From positions 1 to 55,667 of the forward strand of contig CAZSCE010000003.1 of assembly GCA_964605355.1 (NCBI GenBank): 55,667 nt of DNA, written 5' to 3'. The stretch comes from an uncultured Candidatus Saccharibacteria bacterium. GTDB taxonomy: Bacteria > Patescibacteriota > Minisyncoccia > Phycocordibacterales > GWA1-40-21. Both the position numbers and the translations under genes were made by a program. Below the pieces are notes generated by a model. It was not told the origin of the DNA. It ran no database searches and saw nothing but the letters and a program-made list of their open reading frames with translations. Positions 1,487-50,309 of this stretch are shown here, in pieces. Position 1 is the stretch's first letter, and each line of letters opens with the position of its first letter.

Positions 1487-2389
1487 TTACTTCTGACACA
1501 CGGGACAGTAATGGGTGCCGCGGCCGGCGTGTTTAATTTTTAATATGAGAGAGCCGCACTTTTTACATTTCTCATCTTTACGGCCATAAACCAAGAGGTG
1601 GGGGACAAAGCCACCAGGCTCACCAGTACTACGCAAATAATTACGGGAAGAAGTGCCTTTTTTCTGAATAGAGAGTATTAGTACCGCAATAATGTTTTTA
1701 TACAGAGCCACCACCTCATTTTCTTTTAAGGTTTTAATTTTTCGAAAAGGTAGAACTCCCGCCATATGTGCACTCTCATCCGCATAAATATTACCAATAC
1801 CGGCAATCAGTTTTTGATCCAGTAATACCTGCTTCACTGTTCTGTTTGGATACTTTTCTAAAATATTTTTGAAGTTCGCAGGTGCGAACTTGCTGGATAG
1901 GGGCTCAATTCCAATTTCCGTCTCCAAATACTTTTTTAATTTATCATCCATTATTCTCACCCAGCCAAATTTGCGTAAATCATTAAAATAAAGTTTTGAA
2001 CCATCTTCAAAACTAAAAATCAGGCGAGTGTGATTGTTTTTAATAACCAAAGGCAAAGTAGTAAAATTTTTCGCGCTTAACCCTTCCCTGAGTACAGGGT
2101 GGGCTCCGACGCGACTCAAAATTTCACTACTTTGCCTTTGGTAGATAAGCTGCCCAGTCATTTTTAAATGAATAAGTAAGCTGATATTATTATTTAAGCT
2201 AATAATTAGCATTTTGGCCCGCCTCTCTACATTTATAATTTTTCTCCCCACAATTATTTTTTTAAAATTATTTGGAGTAGTGGGGGACACTGTTTTAGCC
2301 CATAAAACTTCCACATCAGAAATAATCCTATTTTTAAGGCTTTTATTAAGCTCCCTTTTTATTGTCTCCACCTCTGGTAATTCCGGCAT
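1487..2389 (-). CDS. mutM: Formamidopyrimidine-DNA glycosylase (Fpg) carrying an in-frame palindromic segment
   Basis: MPELPEVET start, HLKMTG, D.RKFG, GIGNIYADE, C-terminal CxxC...CPVCQ zinc finger. Confidence 0.97.
   Translation of the reverse strand: MPELPEVETIKRELNKSLKNRIISDVEVLWAKTVSPTTPNNFKKIIVGRKIINVERRAKMLIISLNNNISLLIHLKMTGQLIYQRQSSEILSRVGAHPVLREGLSAKNFTTLPLVIKNNHTRLIFSFEDGSKLYFNDLRKFGWVRIMDDKLKKYLETEIGIEPLSSKFAPANFKNILEKYPNRTVKQVLLDQKLIAGIGNIYADESAHMAGVLPFRKIKTLKENEVVALYKNIIAVLILSIQKKGTSSRNYLRSTGEPGGFVPHLLVYGRKDEKCKKCGSLILKIKHAGRGTHYCPVCQK
2046..2142. repeat. Palindromic element family C, in frame inside mutM
   Basis: About 25-bp inverted arms ACCAAAGGCAAAGTAGT.../...ACTACTTTGCCTTTGGT around core CCCTTCCCTGAGTACAGGGTGGGCTCCGACGCGA, shared with 25553-25645. 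Confidence 0.85.
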
Positions 2390-3646: not shown

Positions 3647-4216
3647 TTATTTTCCTAAATGTTTTAAGGCGGCTTTAACTCGTTGACTTGTGGTGAGCGA
3701 AGTCGAACCATCTATTTCCTGGAGGGCTTCACGGCTTTCTTTGTGTGAGTAGCCCAGGGATTTCAGGGCTTCTAGGGCATCTATCTCTTCTTTCATACCA
3801 ATATTTATTTCTTCATAAGTACCCAGTTTACCTTTTAGCTCCAGCACAATTTTATCAGCCATCTTTTTTCCCAAGCCGGATACTTTTGTCAGGTGGGCGG
3901 TTTCTCCAGTGGACACGGCCCGGCGGAGGGAATCTACATTGGCTACATTTAAAATATTTAAGGCAGTTTTTGGCCCCACGCCGGAGATGGTGTTTAATAA
4001 TTCAAAAAAGTCCAGCTCCTTTTTATCAGAAAAGCCGTACAGGTCCAGCGCATTTTCCCGCACGGCTAAATAAGTCCAGATCCGGGCCACATCATTTTCC
4101 TTGGTTTTGCTGACTAATTCTGTGGTGCTGAAAACTTTGTAACCTACACCATTTACATCAACAATCAGGAATTTGTCTGTTTTGTATATAATTTTGCCAT
4201 TTAACTGGGAGATCAT
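3647..4216 (-). CDS. ruvA: Holliday junction branch migration protein RuvA
   Basis: MISQLNG..DVNGVGY, VRE..LDLYGF, SGVGPKTAL, EAL.SLGY. Start at ATG 4216 after TGC-TATAAT-N6. Confidence 0.96.
   Translation of the reverse strand: MISQLNGKIIYKTDKFLIVDVNGVGYKVFSTTELVSKTKENDVARIWTYLAVRENALDLYGFSDKKELDFFELLNTISGVGPKTALNILNVANVDSLRRAVSTGETAHLTKVSGLGKKMADKIVLELKGKLGTYEEINIGMKEEIDALEALKSLGYSHKESREALQEIDGSTSLTTSQRVKAALKHLGK
3687..3712 (-). repeat. Short palindromic element family F (encodes GSTSLTT), in frame in ruvA
   Basis: GATGGTTCGACTTCGCTCACCACAAG, 25/26 identical to 6645-6670. Confidence 0.85.
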
Positions 4217-4271
4217 GAGGTGATTATAGCACATGTTGCTTTTTTACTCACCCTGTGTTAATCTCTCCCTT

Positions 4272-5197: not shown

Positions 5198-5311
5198 ACA
5201 ACCGCCCCGTCCAGCAGACTGGACACCCCTCCTCAACTGAGAGAGGGGGTCTGATTCAGACTCCCTCCTGAGTCAAGGAGGGATGCTGAGTCGGCGAAGC
5301 AGGGCGGTTGT
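5198..5311. repeat. REP/MITE-like element family A, full copy
   Basis: Terminal inverted repeat ACAACCGCCC/GGGCGGTTGT with internal CCTCCT-N-AGGAGG-type hairpins. Confidence 0.85.
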
Positions 5312-5366
5312 CTTTAGGTGACAAGGTGGGGTGAGGTTGTGTTTATAATATGCTAATATATGAGGT

Positions 5367-6776
5367 ATGGAAAAGAATTTTACATTTGTAATCATGGGGG
5401 TGACGGGGGATTTGGCTAAACTCAAGCTTATTCCCGCTATCTATAATTTACTAAAGCTAAATCCCACCATGCGGGTTTCCCTTATTGGCACTGCGCGTTC
5501 GGACACCACCATCCAATCAATTTTAGATGAATCAAAAAAACTTATTTCTAATTTAGACACGGCGGTTTGGAATAAATTATATAATTCTGCTCACTATGTG
5601 CGCCTAAACTTTGATAATTTCGCAGATTTTGAAAATCTGCGCGCTAAAATATTAGAGGTTGAAACTCAGAATAATTTATCTGGTAATAGATTATTTTATT
5701 TAGCCACCCTGCCGGAGCATTTTGAAGCCGCCACTATTAATTTAGCCAAAGCGGGTTTGGTAAACTGTAAAGATAATAAATGGGAGCGTGTATTATATGA
5801 GAAACCTTTTGGGGAGAGTCTGGCTTCAGCTAAACAAATAAACAAAACGATTGATAAAGTTTTTGCGGAGGAAAATGTGTATCGCGTGGATCATTATCTA
5901 GGCAAGGAACTGGTGGGGAATATTGCTCTTCTGCGTTTTACCAACCGGATTTTGGAGCCGTTATGGAATAATAAAAATATAGATTCCGTGCAAATTATTT
6001 GTGATGAGGACTTTGGTATAAAAAACCGGGGTAATTATTATGATAAATACGGCGCCATAAAAGATATTTTGCAAAATCATATTCTGCAAATGCTTTCTTT
6101 GCTGGCCATGGAGTCACCAAAATTTATTTCCGGGGAATATTTGCGAAATGAAAAAGTAAAAGTTTTAAAGGATACAAAAGTGGTGGATATATTACTGGGC
6201 CAGTACGAGGGTTATGATAAGGAACCAGGGGTCAAGCCGGATTCCAAAACGGAAACATTTTTTGCGGCTAAACTAACTGTAAATAATAGGCGCTGGCGCG
6301 GGGTGCCATTTTTTGTTCGAGCCGGCAAGAATTTAAATAAAAAAGAAACCGTTATTCATATTCGGTTTAAACCGGTGGATTGTTTACTGGCTAAAACTTG
6401 TCCGTCTGATAATAATTATTTGACTATCCGGGTACAGCCTAATGAAGGATTTTCTTTTGAGCTCAATTCCAAATCTTTAAGAAAGGGTTTTGAGGTGGAA
6501 ACCGTGGATATGGAATATTGTCACTCCTGTGAGCATGGTCTAAACACACCGGAGGCTTATGAAGTGTTGCTAGAGCAGGCTATTGCGGGGGAGCAGGCGC
6601 TCTTCGTGCGTAATGATGAGGTGGAGTTAGCTTGGAAAATTGTGGATGGTTCGACTTCGCTCACCACAGGTAAAGATGGTAAAAAAGTAGTTTATAAGTA
6701 TCCTATTGGTAGTTCTGGACCAAAAGAATTGGCCGACTGGAATAAGAAGAATAATATTACATGGAAACAAAAATAA
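5367..6776 (+). CDS. zwf: Glucose-6-phosphate 1-dehydrogenase
   Basis: G.TGDLA, EKPFG, RVDHYLGKE, RW.GVPFF.RAGK. Confidence 0.97.
   Translation: MEKNFTFVIMGVTGDLAKLKLIPAIYNLLKLNPTMRVSLIGTARSDTTIQSILDESKKLISNLDTAVWNKLYNSAHYVRLNFDNFADFENLRAKILEVETQNNLSGNRLFYLATLPEHFEAATINLAKAGLVNCKDNKWERVLYEKPFGESLASAKQINKTIDKVFAEENVYRVDHYLGKELVGNIALLRFTNRILEPLWNNKNIDSVQIICDEDFGIKNRGNYYDKYGAIKDILQNHILQMLSLLAMESPKFISGEYLRNEKVKVLKDTKVVDILLGQYEGYDKEPGVKPDSKTETFFAAKLTVNNRRWRGVPFFVRAGKNLNKKETVIHIRFKPVDCLLAKTCPSDNNYLTIRVQPNEGFSFELNSKSLRKGFEVETVDMEYCHSCEHGLNTPEAYEVLLEQAIAGEQALFVRNDEVELAWKIVDGSTSLTTGKDGKKVVYKYPIGSSGPKELADWNKKNNITWKQK
6645..6670 (+). repeat. Family F element in frame in zwf (DGSTSLTTG)
   Basis: GATGGTTCGACTTCGCTCACCACAGG. 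Confidence 0.85.
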
Positions 6777-7723: not shown

Positions 7724-7774
7724 ACAACCGCCCCGGTTCGCCGACTCACCACCCCTCCTCAACTGAGGAGGGGA
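7724..7774 (+). repeat. Family A half-element
   Basis: ACAACCGCCCC...CACCCCTCCTCAACTGAGGAGGGG. Confidence 0.8.
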
Positions 7775-7845
7775 TTTGGTGGAAGTACTACGCACTACTA
7801 TTATTACTTGAAATACTCTGTTTTTTATGTAATTATTCAGAGCAC

Positions 7846-8531: not shown

Positions 8532-8927
8532 ATGAAATATTTAGGGATTGATTTTGGGGAGAAAAGAGTGGGGATAGCCATGTCTGATGATGATGGTAAA
8601 ATAGCTTTTCCAACCGTGGTTTTGGCCAATAATGAGGATTTAATGAAGGGGATTGTGGATTTGTGTATGAAAAATGCGGTAGAAACAGTGGTGATGGGGG
8701 AAAGCCGGGACTATCAAGGCCAAATAAACCCTATCATGTGGAAAATTGAAGGTTTTAAAAAGCAGTTAGAAACTATTGGTTTTAAGGTGGTGTTTGAGCC
8801 GGAATTTATGACTTCCGTTCAGGCCAGTCAGATTACCGGAGAAAATAAGATGCTGGATGCCTCCGCCGCGGCCATAATTTTACAAAGTTATTTAAACAGA
8901 AACACAACCGCCCCGTCATCAGAATGA
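8532..8927 (+). CDS. ruvX: YqgF/RuvX family nuclease
   Basis: LGIDFGEKRVGIA.SD, E..TS, D..AAAIILQSYL. Confidence 0.92.
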   Translation: MKYLGIDFGEKRVGIAMSDDDGKIAFPTVVLANNEDLMKGIVDLCMKNAVETVVMGESRDYQGQINPIMWKIEGFKKQLETIGFKVVFEPEFMTSVQASQITGENKMLDASAAAIILQSYLNRNTTAPSSE

Positions 8928-9030
8928 CACCCCGCCTTGACTAAGGCGGGGAAAGGGAACGTAAAAAGTTAGGTCCCCTTTCTCCTCCTTGATTAAGGAG
9001 GAGTACCGAGTCGGCGAGGGGAGGTGGTGG
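8904..9030. repeat. Family A element, full copy; supplies the ruvX C-terminus and stop codon
   Basis: ACAACCGCCCCGTCATCAGAATGACACCCCGCCTT-N-AAGGCGGGG...CTCCTCCTT-N-AAGGAGGAG...GAGGTGGT. Confidence 0.85.
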
Positions 9031-22623: not shown

Positions 22624-23529
22624 ATGCCTAAAATACTAGATGGAAAAATTGTAAGGGACGGGATAATGGCCGATTTAAAAAAGAAAATTGGTGATTTTAA
22701 AGTAGTGCCCACATTAGCGATAATTAAAATTGGTGATAATCCAGATTCGGATATTTATGTACAGAGGAAATTAGCCTTTGCTAAAAAGATAGGCGTAAAT
22801 GCTTACATTGTAGATTTAAATATTATTGAAAGTGGGGAGAAAAGGGAAATTAATCAAGAAGAATTATTATTGGCTGTTGAAAAATTAAATAAAGATGAAA
22901 GTGTGAATGGCATAATTATTCAAGCCCCTTTACCACCGCCTTTGAATTGGGCGGAAGCGGTAGGAAAGGTGTTAAAAGAAAAAGATGTGGATGGTATGCA
23001 TTCGGATTTTATTTCACCCACAGCCAGAGGGGTGCTCACTCTTTTAAATTATTATAAAATTCCAGTGAAAGGTAAAAAAGTGGTGGTGATGGGGCGGTCA
23101 GCCCTAGTGGGGACACCAGTGGCGGAACTTATGAGAAGAAATGGCGCTGACGTGACCGTGGTGCATAGTCAGACTGAAAACCCAGACAAAATTACCAGGC
23201 AGGCTGATATTTTGATTGTAGCTATTGGGAAACCGGAACTGGTGGGGGCGGATTACGTAAAAGAGGGGGCGGTGGTTATAGATGTGGGAATTAGTACTGT
23301 AATTAAAAATGACGGCACTTTCAACCGCCCCCGTCATCAGAATGCCACCCCCTCCTCATCTGATGAGGGGGTTAGATCGAAGCCTTTGGCTACTGTGGTT
23401 GGAGATGTGGATTTTGAATCAGTGCAAGATCTAGTGACCGCTATTTCTCCGGTGCCGGGTGGGGTAGGGCCTATGACGGTGGCCTCATTATTTCAAAATT
23501 TGGTAGATTCCTGTTCCCCCTCTCATTAG
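22624..23529 (+). CDS. folD: Methylene-THF dehydrogenase/cyclohydrolase with an in-frame repeat insertion
   Basis: ILDGK, KDVDG, GRS.LVG.P, VIDVG, GDVD, PVPGGVGPMTV. Confidence 0.95.
   Translation: MPKILDGKIVRDGIMADLKKKIGDFKVVPTLAIIKIGDNPDSDIYVQRKLAFAKKIGVNAYIVDLNIIESGEKREINQEELLLAVEKLNKDESVNGIIIQAPLPPPLNWAEAVGKVLKEKDVDGMHSDFISPTARGVLTLLNYYKIPVKGKKVVVMGRSALVGTPVAELMRRNGADVTVVHSQTENPDKITRQADILIVAIGKPELVGADYVKEGAVVIDVGISTVIKNDGTFNRPRHQNATPSSSDEGVRSKPLATVVGDVDFESVQDLVTAISPVPGGVGPMTVASLFQNLVDSCSPSH
23322..23372 (+). repeat. Family A half-element in frame in folD (NRPRHQNATPSSSDEG)
   Basis: CAACCGCCCCCGTCATCAGAATGCCACCCCCTCCTCATCTGATGAGGGGG, matching 8904 and 5198. Confidence 0.85.
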
Positions 23530-24951: not shown

Positions 24952-25497
24952 ATGGCTAAACAAAATATACAAGAAGGTAGAAATTGGTATGCTATCCACA
25001 CTTACGCCGGTTATGAAAATGCGGTAGCTAGAAATTTGAAACAAAGAATTGATTCACTAAACATGAATGAAAAGATTTTTGATGTGATTGTCCCAATTGA
25101 GAAAAAAATAAAAGTTAAGGGTGGTAAGAGAGTGGAGGAAGAGGAAAAGATCTATCCTGGATATGTTTTGGTGGATATGATTGTAACTGATGATTCCTGG
25201 TATGTGGTGAGAAATACTCCACGTGTAACTGGGTTTGTGGGTTCTGGAGTTTTCCCTGTGCCACTAGAAAAGAAAGAAATTGAGAATATTTTCACCAGAA
25301 TGAATGCCGGTACAGTCAAACATAACTCCGGTTTGGTGATGGATGATGCCGTGATCATTACTGATGGTCCATTTAAAGATTTGGAGGGTAAAGTGAGCGA
25401 GATAGACAATGATAGGGGTAAGGTCAAGGTATTAGTACTCATGTTTGGCCGGGAGACTTCAGTAGAGCTTGATATGTTGCAAATCAGAAGAATTTAG
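24952..25497 (+). CDS. nusG: Transcription termination/antitermination factor NusG
   Basis: WYAIHTYAGYE, PGYVLV, RNTPRVTGFVG, GPF, MFGRET. Confidence 0.98.
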   Translation: MAKQNIQEGRNWYAIHTYAGYENAVARNLKQRIDSLNMNEKIFDVIVPIEKKIKVKGGKRVEEEEKIYPGYVLVDMIVTDDSWYVVRNTPRVTGFVGSGVFPVPLEKKEIENIFTRMNAGTVKHNSGLVMDDAVIITDGPFKDLEGKVSEIDNDRGKVKVLVLMFGRETSVELDMLQIRRI

Positions 25498-25552
25498 GTA
25501 TTATTAGAAATCTGATTGCTTCTAAATCAGATAAGTTAAAAATCGATAATTC

Positions 25553-25645
25553 AGGACTAAAAATTATTTAAATTTTTTACGCTTCACCCTTCCTGAGTAC
25601 AGGTGGGCTCCGACGCGATAAAAAATTCAAACAATATTTAATCCT
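25553..25645. repeat. Family C element in the rplK leader
   Basis: Core CCCTTCCTGAGTACAGGTGGGCTCCGACGCGA with imperfect AT-rich arms AGGACTAAAAATTATTTAAATTTTTTA/TAAAAAATTCAAACAATATTTAATCCT. Confidence 0.85.
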
Positions 25646-25654
25646 TCAAATAAC

Positions 25655-26080
25655 ATGGCAAAGAAAATAACAAAGAAATTAAAATTACAAATTCCCGCTG
25701 GTAAAGCTAACCCAGCTCCACCAGTTGGTCCCGCCTTAGGTCAGGCCGGTATTAATATTGGTGATTTTGTACAGAAATTTAACGCCGCCACCGCCAAACA
25801 AATGGGGGATATTGTGCCGGTAGAAATTACTGTTTATGAAGACCGCAGTTATGATTTTAGATTAAAGACCCCACCAGCTACTGGTTTGATTTTGAAGGCG
25901 GCTGGCGTGGAGAGTGGTTCTGGCAAGCAGTTAGTCAAAAAGGCTGGTACTATCACCCGTGCGCAGTGTAAAGCTATTGCGGAGAAGAAAATGGCGGATT
26001 TGAATGCCAATGATATCAACGCCGCTATGAAAATCATTGAGGGTTCCTGTAGGTCTATGGGGATTGAAGTGAAAGGCTAA
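25655..26080 (+). CDS. rplK: 50S ribosomal protein L11
   Basis: [30 protein letters not shown]. Confidence 0.98.
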
Positions 26081-48702: not shown

Positions 48703-50157
48703 ATGCCTAAAAATTTTTACATTACCACCACGCTACCATATGTGAATGCGGAACCCCATATGGGTCATGCTTTGGAAATGGTGCGAGCAGATGTTATTGC
48801 CCGGTATAAAAAACTCCTGGGTTATGAAGTATATTTTAATACCGGCACAGATGAGCACGGCCAAAAGATATTTCAAAAATCGGTTGAGGCGGGTAAAACC
48901 CCAAAAGAGTATGCTGATTTTTATGCCAAAAAGTTTCAGGAATTATTAATTTTACTTGGAGTGACGGAGACGGAGGGAATTACCAGAAATTTTATTCGTA
49001 CCACAGATGAGCATCATATTAAATCTGCCCAGGCGTTTTGGAAACTGTGTGATAAAAATGGCTATATTTATAAAAAAAATTATCAGATAAAATACTGTGT
49101 TGGTTGTGAATTAGAAAAGACTGATTCTGATTTGGTTGATGGTAAATGCCCGGATCACCCTAATAGGGAATTAGAGCTGCGGGATGAGGAAAATTACTTT
49201 TTTAAATTTTCGGAATTTCAAAAACCCCTTTTAGATTTGTACAAGAAGAATCCAAATTTCGTTATTCCGGAATCACGCTTTCATGAAATTAGTAATTTTG
49301 TGGAGGCCGGCCTAACAGACTTTAGTATTTCTAGGTTAAAGGAAAAAATGCCATGGGGGATAGAAGTACCGGGAGATGAGAAACAAGTAATGTATGTTTG
49401 GTTTGATGCCTTGGAGAATTATATATCAGCTATTGGCTGGCCAGATAATATGGAGAAATTTGATAAGTGGCAAGTAGAAACGGGAGGGATGGTCCAGTAC
49501 TGTGGTAAAGATAATTTACGCCAGCAAACCGCCATGTGGCAGGCCATGCTGATGGCGGCTGGGTTACCAAATTCTAAAACGGTAATAATAGATGGCTTTG
49601 TGACTGGTGCCGGTGGGGTAAAAATGAGTAAATCTTTAGGTAATGGTATTGATCCAGTGGAGCTTATAGCGGAATACGGCACGGATGCTATGCGCTATTA
49701 TGTGACCAGGGAACTCTCTCCATTTGAAGATAGCCCCATGACCAAGGAAATGTTTAAAGAGGCTTATAATGCTAATCTCGCCAATGGTTTAGGTAACCTC
49801 ACCTCCCGGGTAATGAAAATGGCGGAGACAAATTTGAGTGAACCCGTAACTGTACCAAAAAAAAGCATTCCCACGGAATTTTTTGATTTCTTGGAAAAAT
49901 TTGAAATTCAAAAAGCTATAGATTTTATTTGGCAGAAAATAGCCGAGGCTGATAAAATGATCCAAGAAACTGCACCATTTAAATTAGTAAAGACAGATAA
50001 AGAGAAAGGAATAGAAATAATAAAAGATTTAGTGATTAAGCTTTATACCATTGGCCGAATGCTAAATCCAATTATGCCTGAGACTTCAGAAAAAATATTA
50101 AAATTAATTAAGGAAAACAAAAGTCCCGAAGCCCCACTATTTTTAAGGAAAGATTAG
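48703..50157 (+). CDS. metG: Methionine--tRNA ligase (short form, no C-terminal OB domain)
   Basis: YITTTLPYVNA.PHMGH, GTDEHG.KI, YVWFDAL, KMSKSLGN. Confidence 0.97.
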   Translation: MPKNFYITTTLPYVNAEPHMGHALEMVRADVIARYKKLLGYEVYFNTGTDEHGQKIFQKSVEAGKTPKEYADFYAKKFQELLILLGVTETEGITRNFIRTTDEHHIKSAQAFWKLCDKNGYIYKKNYQIKYCVGCELEKTDSDLVDGKCPDHPNRELELRDEENYFFKFSEFQKPLLDLYKKNPNFVIPESRFHEISNFVEAGLTDFSISRLKEKMPWGIEVPGDEKQVMYVWFDALENYISAIGWPDNMEKFDKWQVETGGMVQYCGKDNLRQQTAMWQAMLMAAGLPNSKTVIIDGFVTGAGGVKMSKSLGNGIDPVELIAEYGTDAMRYYVTRELSPFEDSPMTKEMFKEAYNANLANGLGNLTSRVMKMAETNLSEPVTVPKKSIPTEFFDFLEKFEIQKAIDFIWQKIAEADKMIQETAPFKLVKTDKEKGIEIIKDLVIKLYTIGRMLNPIMPETSEKILKLIKENKSPEAPLFLRKD

Positions 50158-50309
50158 ACAACCGCCCCGTCCATCAGAATGTTCACCCCGCCTTAACCAA
50201 GGCGGGGAAAGGGGACTTTTAGATTACTTACGGTAGCTAAAGAGCTAGCTCCGCTTTCTCCTCCTTAGTCAAGGAGGAGTGGCGAAGCTTTGTGAGCCGA
50301 GGTGGTTGT
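50158..50309. repeat. Family A element, full copy
   Basis: ACAACCGCCCCGTCC...CCCCGCCTT-N-AAGGCGGGG...CTCCTCCTT-N-AAGGAGGAG...GAGGTGGTTGT. Confidence 0.85.

Follow-up and report, generated by a model that had tools for sequence, protein, structure and literature searches.

A dispersed hairpin element with an AATT-bounded span and paired, site-specific arms, found within mutM and upstream of rplK in a CPR bacterium

The two copies of the hairpin called family C in the window (the whole 55,667-nucleotide stretch of DNA analysed here), one in frame within mutM and one upstream of rplK, share a conserved, covarying and strand-asymmetric fold that recurs at many unrelated sites; its presence is patchy, and a single site may hold different cores, a flipped core or none. 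MutM orthologues lack the loop and the palindrome, and further copies exist elsewhere, which supports reading family C as a dispersed inserted element. On balance we favor a selfish, non-autonomous cassette bounded by AATT, which would be kept in the mRNA and translated where it lies in a gene, and whose site-specific arms would be made and kept complementary by polymerase template switching.

The core coordinates of both copies in the first-pass annotation are exact (Table 1), as is the difference of one base pair between their tips, which form a 5-bp stem in mutM and a 4-bp stem at rplK. The mutM arms, described there as near-perfect over about 25 bp, are 25 nt long and 96% complementary; the host ORF is MutM by Pfam, and its open frame encodes the peptide that had been read from it. 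Folding z-scores are -9.6 and -10.3 (plus and minus strand) for the mutM copy and -4.8 and -7.0 for the rplK copy, with 0/200 shuffles folding as well in either case; the core of the mutM copy folds better on the minus strand, which is the mRNA strand of mutM. A contig from another study (run X8) covers positions 1997-2228 with zero differences; being independent and identical across the mutM hairpin, it establishes this as real DNA and not an assembly artefact. The sole RNA run covers 2338-2400 of the mutM region, outside the element. Two further kinds of repeat occur in the window: a palindromic repeat at 3674-3712 and 6645-6683, which contributes the in-frame peptide GSTSLTT near the C-termini of ORFs 3647-4234 (minus strand) and 5367-6776 (plus strand), and a larger, GC-rich intergenic family of purine/pyrimidine-tract hairpins (5199-5314, 7725-7785, 8911-9028, 23322-23382, 50141-50285).

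Table 1. Features of the two family C copies and their sites (positions in the window).
Feature	Position	Strand	Remarks
mutM (fpg) ORF, host of copy 1	1487..2389	-	300 aa; Pfam; insert in surface loop between two beta strands
Copy 1, left arm	2046..2070		25 nt; single mismatch is G.T on minus strand
Copy 1, AATT-to-AATT span, likely mobile unit	2065..2119		55 nt; AATT at 2065 and 2120
Copy 1, conserved core	2074..2114	-	3-bp stem, purine-rich internal loop, CCC/GGG stem, bulge, tip
Copy 1, tip hairpin	2086..2099		5 bp and 4-nt loop
Copy 1, right arm	2118..2142		complementary to left arm
nusG-like ORF upstream of copy 2	24952..25497	+	named from translation
Copy 2, left arm	25553..25576		outer part matches coreless palindrome at same site in G004 (L123)
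Copy 2, AATT-to-AATT span	25571..25623		53 nt
Copy 2, conserved core, 4-bp tip	25580..25618	-	better-folding strand antisense to nusG-rplK
Copy 2, right arm	25622..25645		ends 9 nt before rplK start codon
rplK ORF	25655..26080	+	downstream of copy 2

The source genome (G000; 608 kb, 38.6% GC, 93% complete) is that of an ultra-small CPR bacterium (Paceibacteria), the relatives of its MutM bearing Parcubacteria-type names. By profile and covariance model it holds 13 copies, 12 of them full and one divergent, with an extra fragment adjoining an N gap; 2 of the 13 (in mutM and gatB) lie within ORFs and the remainder are intergenic. The exact pattern is present in 6 of 53 genomes of the taxonomic family, all six in the same genus as G000, and at 52 loci in GTDB, of which three (L082, L083 and L113, from Rhodoluna and Limnocylindrales) are armless and were excluded as chance matches before counting; a search of viral contigs for the pattern gave 0 matches. 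Within the genus 10 of 16 genomes have covariance-model matches, in a sample from the whole order 5 of 141, and in a Nomurabacteria-type genus 26 of 40; copies outside G000 are mostly found in records titled Nomurabacteria, Paceibacteria or Patescibacteria. Genomes carry between 1 and 15 copies in this search, all single, with no REP-iREP dimers. The total set comprises 62 coding copies at 18 sites and 59 intergenic copies at 48 sites.

Double changes occur in 11 of the 19 base pairs of the fold, where shuffles give 5.7 (0/500 reach 11) and slid controls are lower, a count that is overstated in that the copies are kin and some tip columns are fixed by the search pattern. Distant family members retain the internal loop and the CCC/GGG stem, while their tip is fully changed. 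At the gathering score Rfam has no match for the element, and the window yields tRNAs only. A kink-turn reading of the internal loop was dropped, since the second G.A pair varies.

Whether the loop and palindrome in MutM are ancestral, a possibility raised by the first-pass annotation, can be read from the orthologues, which lack the loop; the 14 closest orthologous DNA loops contain no long stem. Of 120 homologues 119 were parsed, and 77 of these have a segment of 26 residues, versus 40 in the query; the motif GGHP is invariant in the 76 standard loops and missing from the query. The element is found in just one further MutM among the 119 (P0001), in the identical loop, frame and orientation and with different arms: the residues that flank the element peptide there differ from those of the query, and over 7 positions their possible codons allow a perfect inverted repeat. 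When the loop is left out of the comparison, the nearest relative of the query is the empty P0002 (81%) and that of P0001 is the empty P0017 (88%), and a tree on 24 proteins rejects the query and P0001 as sisters (p-AU 0.005); there were thus either two arrivals, or the loop moved by recombination. The native GGHP...QTPG stretch is absent from both filled alleles, and the antisense frame of the element places GAHP at about the GGHP position. A metagenome scan for close mutM relatives found loci only 31-49% identical, with the element peptide in none of the parsed loops.

The insert maps between residues 81 and 92 of the MutM structure 1l1t, with which the N-terminal PE motif, the DxRKFG motif and the zinc finger of the query all align. 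An AlphaFold model from 77 sequences (mean pLDDT 87; a single-sequence model with pLDDT 38 was not used) predicts that the MutM fold is intact despite the insert, residues 97-113 having low confidence. The same loop bears other short inserts in P0005, P0007, P0033, P0050, P0076 and P0087, some of which resemble translated repeats; to judge from these sequences, it is an insertion hot spot.

The sole recurrent direct repeat of the family is AATT, present on the left in 86/121 and on the right in 82/121 copies, and it is the distance between the two that tracks the reading frame. This span is a multiple of three (3n) in 56/62 coding versus 8/59 intergenic copies; counted per site, with orthologues grouped, in 15/18 coding versus 7/48 intergenic sites (Fisher p 3e-7); and, when anchored on the nearest AATT instead, in 41/51 coding versus 5/48 intergenic copies. 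The rule holds across different tips, with units of 42, 48, 51, 54, 57 and 63 nt, and an open frame runs through each of the 62 coding copies. Between L090 and L308, two HolB-like genes placed as sisters with support 99/97, the length difference is exactly 18 residues. From the 3n spans at coding sites and this difference we infer that the AATT-to-AATT span of ~54 nt (about 46-57) is the likely mobile unit, gained or lost as a whole, and that coding copies are likely translated, being kept in the mRNA rather than spliced out.

The difference between the two tips had been taken for a compensated indel. The base-pair difference itself is real; it does not record an event between the mutM and rplK copies, being instead a difference of subtype across genomes. 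In a set of 67 distinct copies of the pattern, a 5-bp tip goes with a coding position in 36/37 and a 4-bp tip with an intergenic one in 29/30, which is partly a lineage effect; within the genus of G000 the two further 5-bp copies are both coding and the three further 4-bp copies intergenic, and 5-bp intergenic copies exist in other genera. The AATT-to-AATT distance is a better variable than tip length for predicting whether a copy is coding or intergenic. Two G000 copies break the 3n rule, those in mutM (55 nt) and gatB (52 nt), and would have needed further changes beyond insertion of the unit; the 55-nt unit of mutM would be off frame alone, the frame being kept through additional loss of native loop sequence. 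A role of the extra base pair in restoring the mutM frame was considered and rejected: neither 53 nor 55 nt is a multiple of three, and in G030 the 55-nt copies lie between genes.

Arms have a median length of 23 bp across 63 copies (10-90% range 16-28; the contig-end or truncated copies L035, L046, L053, L076 and L348 were left out of arm analyses). The first-pass annotation had called them largely unrelated between copies, which is correct for the outer part, where they are site-specific, but not for the inner ~10 bp, which are shared family sequence. Its reading of near-perfect arms as the mark of a recent event is not supported, such arms being usual and staying paired through divergence: across 235 arm positions from 11 orthologous pairs, with two loci entering more than once, both sides have changed at 30, every one still Watson-Crick, and one side at 26, and no double change is left unpaired, in a count that favors the paired outcome because arms were delimited by pairing. 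Near-perfect arms thus say little about insertion age. The net gain at coding sites is ~10-27 aa, versus 32 aa for a whole hairpin, so that the arms must overlie native positions. In gatB, where a related core (D) occurs in four genomes, the right arm encodes the native LG-x-L residues and the left arm is its complement; one of these genes nests, with full support, among three empty genes. A native arm always on one fixed side was considered and rejected, since it is the right arm in gatB with core D, the left in HolB and P0001, and neither, in frame, in the mutM query. The 5' arm of mutM reads TKGKVV in a shifted frame, matching native xKGKII codons at the expected place (shuffle p 0.02-0.03). 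This arm may have been copied from native sequence, but similar letters occur in the arms of L397 and L072.

Exchange of cores within arms is seen at several sites: the HolB copy L062 has its core flipped between the arms, and in the loops of leuS, gatB and HolB the cores are many and varied and stand beside other palindromes. The abstract of PMC8604942 names two products of template switching, arm homogenisation and spacer inversion, and the swaps and flips of family C cores fit such a process. Neither MutS nor SbcD could be found in G000, which is 93% complete. Three other G000 families likewise have a conserved centre within site-specific perfect arms: core D (C1:14756, C4:28892, C5:35412, C24:3387, C25:3195; two copies inside ORFs), core E (C12:15110, C22:86) and core F (C4:2945, C12:14221, C22:196).

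The favored cassette would enter at AATT, often at the centre of an existing palindrome (a terminator or a relic), and would leave AATT on both sides, so that only 3n lengths would readily survive in genes. One flank would then be copied onto the other, giving a stem of ~23 bp that overwrites native codons and is continually corrected, and a host without detectable MutS or SbcD would tolerate such rewriting of arms. A bolder version, which we regard as doubtful, would make family C an undescribed class of CPR cassette, in which an enzyme recognises the structured tip, inserts at AATT, and builds and re-corrects the ~23-bp stem from the host flank by nick-primed fold-back synthesis; the stems would then be reusable docks at which tips are swapped, flipped or lost, repeatedly rewriting the surface loops of housekeeping proteins. 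No very close pair of filled and empty alleles was found, so that gain and loss cannot be polarised.

That the whole hairpin of ~95 nt, arms and foot loop included, is mobile in the manner of a MITE, with its inverted repeats drifting together and native sequence lost by separate deletions, is unlikely, although part of the arm is element-borne in some copies. A conserved 3x3 loop ends the stem there, with TTC on the right in 21/83 copies and on both sides in 13 (background 6%), and the G178 copies have arm sequence in common; the fixed distance of the loop and these shared arms both point to sequence carried by the element. The narrow range of arm lengths and the resemblance of the mutM arm to those of L397 and L072 speak for the same reading. 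The 3x3 loop, present in some copies (for example L109, L111, L345 and L353), is purine-rich on the GTAG strand and closes the stem ~17 bp out from the core. Against a mobile whole hairpin, the net gain in genes is near that of the core unit and not 95 nt, the frame tracks the AATT-to-AATT length, and the arms of core D in gatB encode native residues.

At rplK the arms had been described as decayed; they are imperfect, with 20/24 positions Watson-Crick, and not simply decayed, since of the four mismatches three form G.T wobbles when read on the minus strand. Of the 13 genus loci displayed, 12 lack the element in the nusG-rplK spacer, and in most the spacer is short. In G004 the outer arms form a 23-nt palindrome with no core between them, which differs from the filled site by 70 nt, not 53, and in G007 similar arms surround an unrelated core. 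As the rplK, leuS, gatB and HolB sites are all reused by different cores, the copy is unlikely to be a dedicated regulator of rplK; no terminator was called at it. A small hairpin at 25511-25531 in the same spacer, which has no Rfam match, is kept in most of the genus loci displayed, with or without the element, and on its conservation would be a better candidate for the true rplK leader signal. Upstream of rplK in G012 (L115) and G009 (L126), a much longer inverted repeat encloses ~100 nt with inner hairpins and is unrelated to family C.

The two strands of the element are not equivalent. On the strand that reads CGCTT, arm mismatches are 64 A.C versus 8 G.T, which means that wobble pairs fall on the opposite strand, named for its tag GTAG; the tag is GTAG in many copies, commonly also GTGG, GTAA or GTCG, and reads GTCG-GAG in the mutM and rplK copies. 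Neutral template switching does not explain this bias, which suggests selection or biased repair; the GTAG strand may be the one recognised, or strong folding of its complement may be selected against. In antisense copies, taken as a control, the count is 3 A.C versus 2 G.T, a sample too small to weigh. The CGCTT strand is on the G-rich strand in 12/13 G000 copies, including that of mutM, where it is antisense to the gene, and orientation in G000 thus seems to follow replication more than transcription. These orientations also bear on whether the copies are RNA structures selected by the host (terminators, RNase III or stability signals, a leader switch of rplK) that spread by usefulness, which we hold to be improbable. 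Strong covariation, the many intergenic copies in terminator-like stems directly after genes, the terminator-like hairpins at empty orthologous KH sites and the RNase III of the genome would all suit it. However, it is the non-transcribed strand that folds better at rplK and at most g1 sites, and mostly the transcribed one in G178 and G030, where orientation relative to genes is mostly reversed; copies within ORFs occur in both orientations; and both the missing Rfam match and the many rplK spacers without the element count against it.

For the favored cassette, we tentatively suggest by analogy, as the likeliest mover, a RAYT-like single-strand HUH nuclease that would work in trans and act on whichever strand bears the GTAG-like tag. 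No family C copy lies within ~1.5 kb of the 21 Y1_Tnp loci from 11 genomes of the genus, nor of three GIY-YIG loci and a reverse transcriptase locus, and no mobilising gene is therefore assigned. An HuH-type motif was sought in 307 neighboring ORFs and found in none, and Pfam searches on 19 proteins, including 12 unexplained neighbors, gave a reverse transcriptase, a LAGLIDADG and a GIY-YIG gene, each found singly and not seen again in another species. Pairs of copies on either side of a small gene were considered as a possible sign of a mover and rejected: in the five pairs examined, the genes that they enclose or occupy are housekeeping or ordinary ones. The Y1_Tnp genes of the genus (L286-L301) are flanked by short perfect palindromes of their own, often one per side; G000 itself encodes two Y1_Tnp proteins (C15:9118 and C7:22097).

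One G000 locus (L420, C11:2082-5690) holds a reverse transcriptase, an Avd-like neighbor of 113 aa and a target-like ORF, and is presumably a diversity-generating retroelement (DGR). That family C spread by reverse transcription of an RNA copy, with this enzyme or a similar one, is very improbable: the enzyme and its Avd-like neighbor are at hand and the fold is strand-specific, but no copy lies near the locus, no A-specific variation was noted in the cores, and promoter or transcript evidence for the element is lacking. Hardly credible is an intron or intervening sequence cut from the RNA, its arms joining the ends. The long closing stem includes exon-like sequence and the purine-rich internal loops may resemble RNA loop E motifs, which would suit it, but splicing would need neither the open frames of 62/62 coding copies nor the 3n units of 56, and removing the hairpin from mutM would not restore the native loop, which is already gone.

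Known systems share some traits with family C, as far as the available parts of the cited papers describe them. The in-frame palindromic repeats in Rickettsia genes (PMC2229807, PMC3733652), or RPEs, are likewise stem-loops of ~100 nt in a reduced genome, found both between genes and in frame in conserved genes, and with no known transposase (PMC2229807); RPEs are described as having their own 12-bp terminal repeats, the identity of which is said to fade with time (PMC6649704), whereas family C is conserved at its centre, its outer arms differ at each site yet remain paired, and it has no family-conserved terminal inverted repeats. With the GTAG-REPs mobilised with RAYT genes, family C shares a GTAG-like tetranucleotide 5' of a strand-specific, bulged hairpin of 20-50 nt, as in group 2 REPs (PMC8266576), as well as intragenic copies in repair or replication genes and, as for some REPs, a place within longer palindromes (PMC3733652, PMC8266576). 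It differs in that its tag varies, stands at least 2 bases from the stem and lies inside a larger hairpin; in that REPs come in hundreds, often as REP-iREP dimers (BIME/REPIN), against 1-15 single copies; and in that the repeats of a REP system flank their cognate tnpA-REP gene, the product of which cleaves at CT/CA, whereas none of the 21 Y1_Tnp loci of the genus is flanked by family C, other palindromes flanking them.

YPAL/RU-2 of Yersinia also has targets that span or adjoin dyad symmetry, and carries an open frame; it measures 168 bp with target duplications of 3-26 bp, and the part of PMC2229807 that treats it describes neither co-evolving site-specific arms nor core exchange. Perfect inverted repeats in coding DNA are actively maintained in Nematomorpha mitochondria (PMC6649704), and arm homogenisation or conversion and spacer inversion occur in template-switch systems (PMC8604942, PMC5941160); these palindromes have no shared mobile core, whereas family C has a conserved central cassette and a narrow arm length. 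Bacterial MITEs have conserved terminal repeats and duplicate TA, whereas family C has no conserved outer ends and only the internal AATT. Searches of the CPR literature, mainly of open main texts, gave no description of family C; PMC9297842 deals with rRNA insertions. Family C is thus apparently an undescribed variant of RPE/REP-like palindromic elements.

New here are a unit bounded by AATT that carries a frame rule, two likely arrivals in MutM with loss of GGHP, and counted evidence for arm pairing. The AATT-bounded span and the frame rule describe a widespread source of odd in-frame peptides such as TLPGVPGG and HPVLREG in CPR proteins, which can mislead annotation and phylogeny, and the perfection of arms is no clock for the age of an insertion. 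If the building of arms belongs to the insertion reaction, this would be a mode of transposition that makes inverted rather than direct copies of its target, and that remodels essential proteins.
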